Below are positions 14,947 through 16,523 of a stretch of 64,000 nt of DNA, piece after piece. Origin of the DNA: Eledone cirrhosa. Lineage: Eukaryota. How positions within the stretch are numbered: the stretch's first letter is position 1; every line of letters starts with the position of its first letter. Where the stretch lies: positions 11,222,001 to 11,286,000 of the forward strand of contig OZ024752.1 in NCBI GenBank assembly GCA_964016885.1, in the 5' to 3' direction. The translations under genes and the position numbers were made by a program. The notes beneath the pieces are model-generated. The model saw nothing but the letters and a program-made list of their open reading frames with translations, made no database searches and was not told where the DNA came from.

Positions 14947-15010
<64 letters not shown>

Positions 15011-15147
15011 TATTAAATTGTAAAACAATATTCGATGATTATGTCAAAGAATGAGTTTTACAGTAGATTGGAAGCGCTCAACAGCTAAAAAAAAATGTTC
15101 AGGAGTTATTAATATAAGTATTAATAAAATAGATGTTCTTTTGATCA

Positions 15148-15210
15148 ATTACATTTTATTATAAATATTTCGGATGTACAACAGTACGTCCTCATCAGAC
15201 AAAATATAAT
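15148..15210 (-). ncRNA. type I hammerhead ribozyme (family H4), copy A
   Basis: ATTATATTTTGT-CTGATGA-GGACGTACTGTTGTACATCC-GAAA-TATTTA-TA-ATAAAATGTAAT: 12-bp stem I (with G-U pairs), intact core, minimal stem III. Confidence 0.8.
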
Positions 15211-15513
15211 GATACATGACATACCCTGAGATTTAAAATGGTTAAGATTTAATCAAGATAGTATATATGTATATATATACACTCGTACACATATATGTAT
15301 ATAAATGTATATGTACACACAAATATATATATATATATTCATAAATATACTCATACACATATGTATATACGTGTATATGCACACACAAATATATATATAT
15401 ATATATATTTACAAATATACTCATACACATATATGTATATTCATGTATATACATACAAAAAAATATATATATATTTATAAATATATTCACACACATATGT
15501 ATATACATATATT

Positions 15514-15587
<74 letters not shown>

Positions 15588-15932
15588 TGGATAGAAAAAA
15601 ACACGCGCATCGATTTGGTTTCTCTTTTAAGTTATATTCCTTTTGTTTTATATCAATAATGACATTGTAGTGTATCGTTGACGAATGTGGAATAATATTT
15701 TATGTTTCGCGTTTCGGTATAAATATATATATATACATACATCAATTACAAATAGATAAAAGTGTAAAAGAGTATATATATATATATATATATTAAATAG
15801 TTAAACAAGATTCAATGAGTATGTCAAAGAATGAGTTTTACAGTAGATTGGAAGCACTCAACGCAAAAATAATTTTCCAGAGTTATTAATATTAAAATAC
15901 AAATATTAATAAAATATATGTTCTTTTGATTA

Positions 15933-15995
15933 ATTACATTTTATTATACATATTTCGGATGTACGACTGTACGTCCTCATCAGACAAAATATAAT
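15933..15995 (-). ncRNA. type I hammerhead ribozyme (family H4), copy B
   Basis: Same fold as copy A, intact CTGATGA/GAAA core, stem III loop TATGTA. Confidence 0.8.
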
Positions 15996-16073
15996 GATAC
16001 ATGACATACCCTGAGATCTTAAATGGTTAAATTAAATCTTAACCATTTAACATCTCAGGGTATGTCATGTATC

Positions 16074-16136
16074 ATTATATTTTGTCTGATGAGGACGTAC
16101 TGTTGTACATCCGAAATATGTATAATAAAATGTAAT
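16074..16136 (+). ncRNA. type I hammerhead ribozyme (family H4), copy C
   Basis: CTGATGA at 16086-16092, GAAA at 16113-16116, predicted cleavage after 16124; inverted partner of copy B. Confidence 0.82.
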
Positions 16137-16523
16137 TGATCAAAAGAACATCTATTTTATTAATATTTGTATTTTAATATATATATAATTATAGTTCTTA
16201 CCGTTTTTCCTGGTACCATATTTATACTTATATATATATATATTATGAATGGTGTGCTTATGCACAGAGATGCTCTAATATAGGGTGAAGGCCCTTAAAG
16301 ACGGAAAAAGTAGTTCCCGTTAGTCACTACGATATCTTAGAGAGACGTGGTTCTTTCCGTCGTAGCAGACGATGGCAACTTTTTCCATATTTAAGCGTCT
16401 TTTCTAAGCTATTTTATAGCATTTAGGAGCATTTCCTTAGTATTTTTCATATTAAATTATCCCGTCAGTGCTTCGAGGGATAGGCTACGTATCCCCAATA
16501 TTTGGTAGTACATATGTGTGTAG

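Follow-up and report, generated by a model that had tools for sequence, protein, structure and literature searches.

How three hammerhead ribozyme (HHR) motifs came to lie side by side in non-coding DNA is the question raised by a locus within a 64-kb window, the window being the whole stretch of AT-rich, animal-type DNA analysed here, which holds many (TA)n arrays. The first-pass annotation read the locus as a retrozyme-like cassette whose minus-strand transcript could release a 785-nt RNA. Our analysis points instead to two insertions, close to each other, of Penelope-like element (PLE) pseudo-LTR stubs that belong to a young, highly repeated, non-coding family; this is probably how the locus arose. 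That the family consists of non-coding PLE pseudo-LTR stubs with a minimal HHR is, judged by its anatomy, very probable.

The locus is composed of three copies of a ~240-nt unit. Copy 1 (15009-15262, minus strand) is a long arm with its tail at ~15009-15102; its 3' end abuts an (AT)29 microsatellite (14950-15008), the likely target, and its 5' end falls within the short 5' palindrome of the family and adjoins a TA-rich micro- and minisatellite (15262-15588) that makes up 42% of the 785-nt interval. A spacer (15589-15772), without another match in the window and without a PLE coding remnant, leads from there to a (TA)11 tract (15773-15794), which abuts the 3' end of copy 2 and is the likely second target. 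Copy 2 (15793-16030, minus strand), the long arm of a fold-back, carries a 96-nt tail (15793-15888), and copy 3 (16031-16180, plus strand), the short inverted arm, stands head-to-head with it and ends at a tail-less second 3' end in (TA)n. TA repeats flank copy 1 and the copy 2/3 pair on both sides, and no target-site duplication is readable in these flanks.

Copies 1 and 2 are direct repeats with a spacing of 785 nt, as had been claimed for a ~250-bp unit (15009-15255 and 15793-16030). They differ by 18 mismatches over 230 aligned columns, together with two short insertions and an 8-nt deletion in copy 1. A third HHR, on the plus strand, had been placed in a ~140-bp hairpin with the second, and the inverted arms (15884-16030 and 16039-16185) are indeed 147 nt long, 95% complementary and separated by 8 nt, with differences between copies 2 and 3 at 5 of 142 sites. 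The resulting hairpin is predicted at ~-200 kcal/mol on either strand. By comparison, copy 3 and copy 1 form an inverted match of 143 nt. The 785-nt interval is low in GC (21%) and non-coding: its coding frames of at least 90 aa are only microsatellite read-outs, and no PLE ORF (reverse transcriptase plus GIY-YIG endonuclease) was found between the copies, with tblastn of 10 PLE-like proteins against the window matching only 16867-17067. In the tail, a plus-strand frame looks peptide-like in two copies but is ~30 codons long.

The hammerhead cores in the window are not a product of chance, since a degenerate core pattern has 5 matches there compared with 0.00 in 100 shuffles. HHR1 (15148-15210, minus strand), HHR2 (15933-15995, minus strand) and HHR3 (16074-16136, plus strand) have CUGAUGA cores that start at -15198, -15983 and +16086, and all use the triplet AUA, with N17 at 15160, 15945 and 16124, respectively. 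The predicted cut sites are 15160/15159, 15945/15944 and 16124/16125, and the first two fall exactly where the first-pass annotation had put them, 785 nt apart. All three motifs are of the minimal type I, with a 12-bp stem I, a 7-bp stem II containing one mismatch, and a stem III of 2 bp closed by a 4-nt loop. The unbroken stem I and the 2-bp stem III are not those of a canonical type I HHR with a loop 1-loop 2 contact; the CUGANGA/GAAA/NUH core, stems I and II, and the stem III of 1-2 bp with a self-complementary loop are those of minimal HHR stubs. The description of the ribozymes as intact holds for the cores only, and in HHR1 a G-to-U change weakens the self-complementary loop III. Lunse et al. 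are said to have reported in 2017 that small PLE hammerheads cleave as dimers.

Alignment of six HHR copies from the window further supports the stems. In this alignment 92.9% of stem cells pair, and 6 of 21 pairs have changed on both sides, a level as high being seen in 1 of 500 shuffles and slid controls giving 0-1; the set is small (six related copies, three near-identical), so this covariation is support and not a probability. Rfam returned 0 matches at the gathering score over the whole window and, at E<=10 in 15000-16300, 57 weak matches, mostly to generic microRNA hairpin models and 0 to a hammerhead family. This silence fits minimal motifs, yet it is a negative result. Elsewhere, a CUGAUGA...GAAA word at 59181 (plus strand), with a possible GC-rich stem II and no evident stem I, is probably chance.

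The unit is also dispersed through the window, where a profile finds 7 arms at 5 insertion sites (the profile being built from the same 7 arms), often single or in opposite-strand pairs. An older fold-back at 56866-57232, with arms 83% alike, ends in (TA)n; its right arm keeps an intact core (57178) and runs as far as the cut site, where it meets a TA array, and its left arm has lost GAAA and stem III. At 46481-46670, a long arm with a 35-nt 5' palindrome, a mutated core (G for C3) and a TA-repeat end sits inside another repeat that resumes at ~46670. The lone plus-strand arm at 11080-11240 has an intact core (11131) and a decayed stem II, and ends in (TA)n. In the six readable arms, the 5' end lies ~47-75 nt upstream of the core. 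The family has two 3' ends with the tail on one arm, a head-to-head inverted copy with a 5' palindrome, and a preference for (TA)n targets. Two further stretches, 12480-12570 and 12965-12990, resemble the family stem I and core start by eye and were missed by the family profile. Further tandem repeats in the window are two distinct 78-bp arrays and a minisatellite with 31 copies of a 50-bp unit, at 22063-22453, 36804-37064 and 8063-9613.

Public sequence runs extend this observation: the ~240-nt unit is a highly repeated family. Contigs of three runs from one sample, of unrecorded kind and possibly including the source of the window, were aligned to 15590-16038 (16-17 million records per run; share of words 0.25-0.34). 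No RNA run was listed among those containing the sequence, a result that says nothing about expression. On 15800-16038, 1676, 1478 and 1367 contigs aligned in the three runs, and the summed depth reached ~2-4 x 10^5 over most of the unit versus 5-27 for the single pieces listed, which as a rough inference suggests thousands of family copies or more, summed depth not being a copy number. Left of 15889, the loose ends of 10, 11 and 16 contigs run into (TA)n at the point that corresponds to the end of copy 3, and the family has two 3' ends, one long and one short, both running into (TA)n. Right of 16030, 32, 31 and 36 contigs have loose ends that resemble the 5' end of copy 1 and lead into a short self-complementary stretch; they may represent a natural 5' palindrome or a shared fold-back centre, which these contigs do not distinguish because agreement there is only 0.68-0.76. 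Two opposite-strand joints were listed, with one contig each in one run. The family's loose ends do not enter the 15589-15772 spacer. The whole of 15590-15799 (14 of the 30 bins) has no contig cover, but repeats at 15710-15804 were skipped and such a hole proves nothing.

The family variants listed in these runs (at least 5%) spare the ribozyme core, with 0 in its 13 positions, and a variant at 15960 replaces C-A by C-C at the mismatch of stem II, where the diverged copies located at 46.5 and 57.2 kb also have C-C. Seven of the 18 differences between copies 1 and 2 are listed family variants, four at positions where only copy 2 deviates from the family letter and three (15870, 15878 and 15879) being minority variants at ~4-34% of depth; the remaining 11 are absent from the listed variants. 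In a separate pattern scan of metagenomes, 57 loci were retrieved, 0 of which had a BLAST match to the family. They were rejected as chance matches, as none had both stems and the best had a 6-bp stem I without a stem II.

The locus contains no ORF, and its link to PLEs is by anatomy and by a neighbouring second repeat family. The first-pass annotation had likened the arrangement to the direct plus inverted terminal repeats of PLE insertions, and this reading is supported by the two direct copies and one inverted copy, the tail on one arm, the minimal HHRs and the (TA)n targets. The second family, found at five loci (16816-17225, 13008-13068, 33350-33545, 45270-45486 and 63760-63930), has the same long-arm/short-arm inverted plan and also lies in (TA)n. 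Its copy at 16816-17225 encloses a 65-aa frame (16873-17070), to which 9 of 38 candidates are related. Among these, P0004 (55% over 51 aa) shows by eye the RWK, DKT and CxCX5C motifs, which define the Hydra clade (PMC8557442), and the fragment agrees by eye with the printed Hydra-1_Obim alignment at 26 of 36 residues. Pfam gave no match to the 65-aa fragment, and a GIY-YIG match in one of five relatives was below the curated cut-off. By these resemblances, 16873-17070 is a Hydra-clade-like PLE reverse transcriptase fragment. Its likeness to Hydra-1_Obim, taken together with the repeat landscape, suggests that the host is of octopus type. The arms of this second family show an apparent 3' half of a hammerhead (GAAAC, a 5-bp stem and GUC), without an upstream CUGANGA in 5 of 5 copies. 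Several second-family stubs adjoin a SINE-like repeat whose 3' end often enters (TA)n and which has partial tandem copies, of period 190-230, at 13621-14240, 18220-18620 and 30393-30799.

A DNA-type fold-back element or MITE bearing chance hammerhead-like words would likewise present long inverted repeats, no ORF, a high copy number and TA targets. It is nevertheless a very remote prospect: the arm ends are separated by 96 nt in the unit, arms also occur singly (copy 1 and 11080-11240), the HHR stems covary across subfamilies, and the parallel family holds a reverse transcriptase fragment. Against the PLE-stub reading itself stand a tail of 96 nt, which exceeds the described 30-40 bp, and the lack of an autonomous partner tied to the family.

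Under the favoured history of two insertions, an autonomous PLE protein acting in trans would have cut a (TA)n tract and reverse-transcribed a stub RNA. Copies 2 and 3 would represent one insertion that has an element 3' end on each outer side, the 96-nt tail being present on only one of them, and whose arms are joined at their 5' ends near the short palindrome. The joining may have occurred by fold-back self-priming, as proposed by Gladyshev and Arkhipova (PMC3846280), or, as we infer from the behaviour of the anole PLE protein, by priming of both cut DNA strands at two start sites. Copy 1 would have inserted separately, as a single arm, into the neighbouring TA tract, and the 785-nt cut-to-cut distance and the ribozyme-silencing hairpin would be by-products in copies that are now drifting.

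The same family, again with no coding role, could have had a different history, in which a single PLE-driven insertion, through a template jump or donor-locus read-through, placed ~530 bp of captured host DNA between direct pseudo-LTRs and added an inverted copy. Such a layout is described for Pen2a/Pen3a as the product of a single event, along with non-coding captured sequences in Adineta (PMC3846280); here copies 1 and 3 are 97% complementary, and the 5' end of copy 1 and the 5' start of copy 3 are nearly complementary across the family palindrome. However, copy 2 stops at the 3' terminus of the family, in a separate (TA)11 tract, and the 5' end of copy 1 abuts TA repeats, so that the donor would itself need two insertions, and a target-site duplication is unreadable in the TA flanks. 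Two insertions are favoured, and one capture is considered rather unlikely, because copy 1 and the copy 2/3 pair are each TA-flanked on both sides, because copy 2 ends at the family terminus, and because copy 1 shares three minority family variants absent from copy 2. These variants (15870, 15878 and 15879) point to different source copies for copies 1 and 2, and they lie in a hypervariable A/T stretch where recurrent change is possible. The contrast in divergence, 18/230 between copies 1 and 2 versus 5/142 between copies 2 and 3, is not significant (Fisher p = 0.12). If ~10^4 copies in a few-Gb genome are assumed, tens of same-strand pairs less than 1 kb apart are expected without clustering, and one such pair therefore needs no special cause.

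Fold-back chimeras are a known artefact of long reads, and no listed contig carries the exact junction between copies 2 and 3, the aligned stretch having ended 8 nt past it. An origin of the hairpin in sequencing or assembly is still of negligible probability: among the 5 differences over 142 arm sites, four are private to copy 2 at sites where copy 3 has the family letter, and the arms of other fold-backs in the window match each other at only 83%.

The retrozyme reading has to be weighed against what defines such elements. According to Cervera and de la Pena (2020, PMC7229834), the monomers of non-LTR retrozymes measure 150-450 bp, lie head-to-tail, mostly carry canonical HHRs and are expressed in circular form, and Li et al. 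(2026, 10.64898/2026.07.22.740005) derive retrozymes from PLE pseudo-LTRs and require two consecutive tandem units. If the locus were a non-LTR retrozyme, whether working or nascent, minus-strand RNA starting at ~16035-15996 would let an HHR1/HHR2 dimer release a 785-nt monomer, which would circularise and re-insert. Both cores are intact, of the same sense and 785 nt apart, the interval has a GC content of 21%, and animal retrozymes are reported as PLE pseudo-LTR derivatives with consensus lengths of 51-972 bp (10.64898/2026.07.22.740005). By comparison, the locus has one interval only and no head-to-tail array: the repeated unit is the ~240-nt stub, and the two stubs, with their 18/230 differences, are separated by ~530 bp of unrelated DNA. 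TRF, whose search stops at a period of 500, is no test of a 785-nt tandem. Furthermore, the family's loose ends enter (TA)n or the 5' palindrome rather than the spacer, and direct repeats from one circle should be alike, yet these carry different family variants. Minimal HHRs also showed no monomer cleavage and low dimer cleavage in vitro (PMC4209133), and the stem III dimer helix of HHR1 with HHR2 is predicted at +0.4 kcal/mol versus -2.2 for the consensus pair.

Predicted folds bear on the same point. When minus-strand RNAs with six different starts are folded by partition function, a calculation that is rough at ~1 kb and leaves out co-transcriptional folding, both HHRs are never well folded together. 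With starts at 16030-16060, HHR1 exceeds 0.9 and HHR2 reaches 0.12-0.26, being mostly misfolded from 16030 (0.18/0.26); with a start at 16100, HHR2 is lost; and with starts at 16140-16400, both fall to <=0.27, so that for RNAs from 16100-16400 one or both HHRs have a stem probability <=0.27, a rough value for 1-kb RNAs. Read-through RNA would, in these models, leave at most one of HHR1 and HHR2 free, and release of a 785-mer is not supported because both must be free. The suggestion that the fold-back could sequester the ribozyme agrees with the predicted folds, and HHR3 is likewise predicted to be tied up whenever a plus-strand RNA contains the arm of copy 2. Overall, we regard a working or nascent retrozyme as highly unlikely. 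The same holds, if slightly more so, for the joint claim that the family is a ~250-nt PLE satellite whose usual product is a head-to-head hairpin made by two-strand priming and that the locus is a nascent retrozyme excising a host microsatellite as a 785-nt circle, with the hairpin as a switch that permits cutting only if transcription starts at its centre. Were the 785-nt circle to exist, it would show a retrozyme arising from two chance stubs and host DNA. Like animal non-LTR retrozymes, the locus has same-sense type I HHRs around a low-GC non-coding stretch and a likely PLE ancestry; unlike them (PMC7229834), its repeated unit is a stub and its interval is single and microsatellite-filled.

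The cause of inverted PLE insertions was named an open question by Craig et al. (PMC8557442). Thousands of young long-arm/short-arm fold-backs could tell self-priming from two-strand priming in such insertions. The anole PLE protein acts on both DNA strands in vitro, cutting and extending each, with two start sites that define the tail and with HHR cleavage not required (Frangieh et al., PMC11167929). A search of the literature on twin priming and inverted Penelope insertions, with subscription journals mostly outside it, found no two-strand priming model for PLEs. A search on octopus or cephalopod Penelope elements and hammerheads, with most subscription journals and Repbase/Dfam outside it, did not find the family, and neither 'hammerhead' nor 'ribozyme' occurs in the main text of the repeat paper on Octopus vulgaris.

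Comparison with described PLEs places the family by plan. Craig et al. (2021, PMC8557442) describe an inverted pseudo-LTR, a one-sided tail, 5' palindromes and (TA)n bias in PLEs, with a (TA)n preference in Naiad, Hydra and Neptune PLEs; the octopus element Hydra-1_Obim shares this preference and has an HHR ~100 nt from its 3' end. The family resembles Hydra-clade PLEs in its (TA)n targets and in a sense HHR near the 3' terminus. Its HHR sequence differs from that of Hydra-1_Obim, and the family motifs tried retrieved no relative from the Naiad/Chlamys/Hydra supplement of that study.

The ribozymes are closest in build to those reported by Cervera and de la Pena (2014, PMC4209133), who describe minimal HHRs in metazoan PLE repeats, dispersed truncated stubs, and opposite-strand pairs of minimal HHRs 100-700 bp apart. 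In common with these stubs, the present family has a type I minimal HHR with a long helix II, a tiny helix III and a self-complementary loop, a G10.1-C11.1 pair and many dispersed copies, and its opposite-strand cores (HHR2/HHR3) are 103 nt apart. The differences are a stem I of 12 bp here versus 4-5 bp in their consensus, the absence of any need for an extra unpaired base before stem II, a conserved stem II mismatch, and the lack of an ORF-bearing partner found for the family.

The layout of the locus has its nearest counterpart in Adineta vaga, where Pen2a/Pen3a comprise two direct and one inverted pseudo-LTR with a one-sided tail (Gladyshev and Arkhipova 2013, PMC3846280); PLEs of this species have 5' palindromes of 18-38 bp and non-coding DNA captured between solo pseudo-LTRs, and the described PLE tail of 30-40 bp is 31 bp in its Penelope insertions. 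Unlike Pen2a/Pen3a, the locus is without an ORF and without a readable target-site duplication, its tail is 96 nt rather than 31, and the two direct copies are flanked by separate TA repeats. As in Pen2a/Pen3a, it has two direct repeats and one inverted repeat, an inverted copy shorter at its 3' end, a head-to-head junction, a 5' palindrome and non-coding DNA between solo pseudo-LTRs. The ~240-nt family is thus a further case of the PLE hammerhead stubs already described, an ordinary product of such elements, and the locus adds one more family to them.
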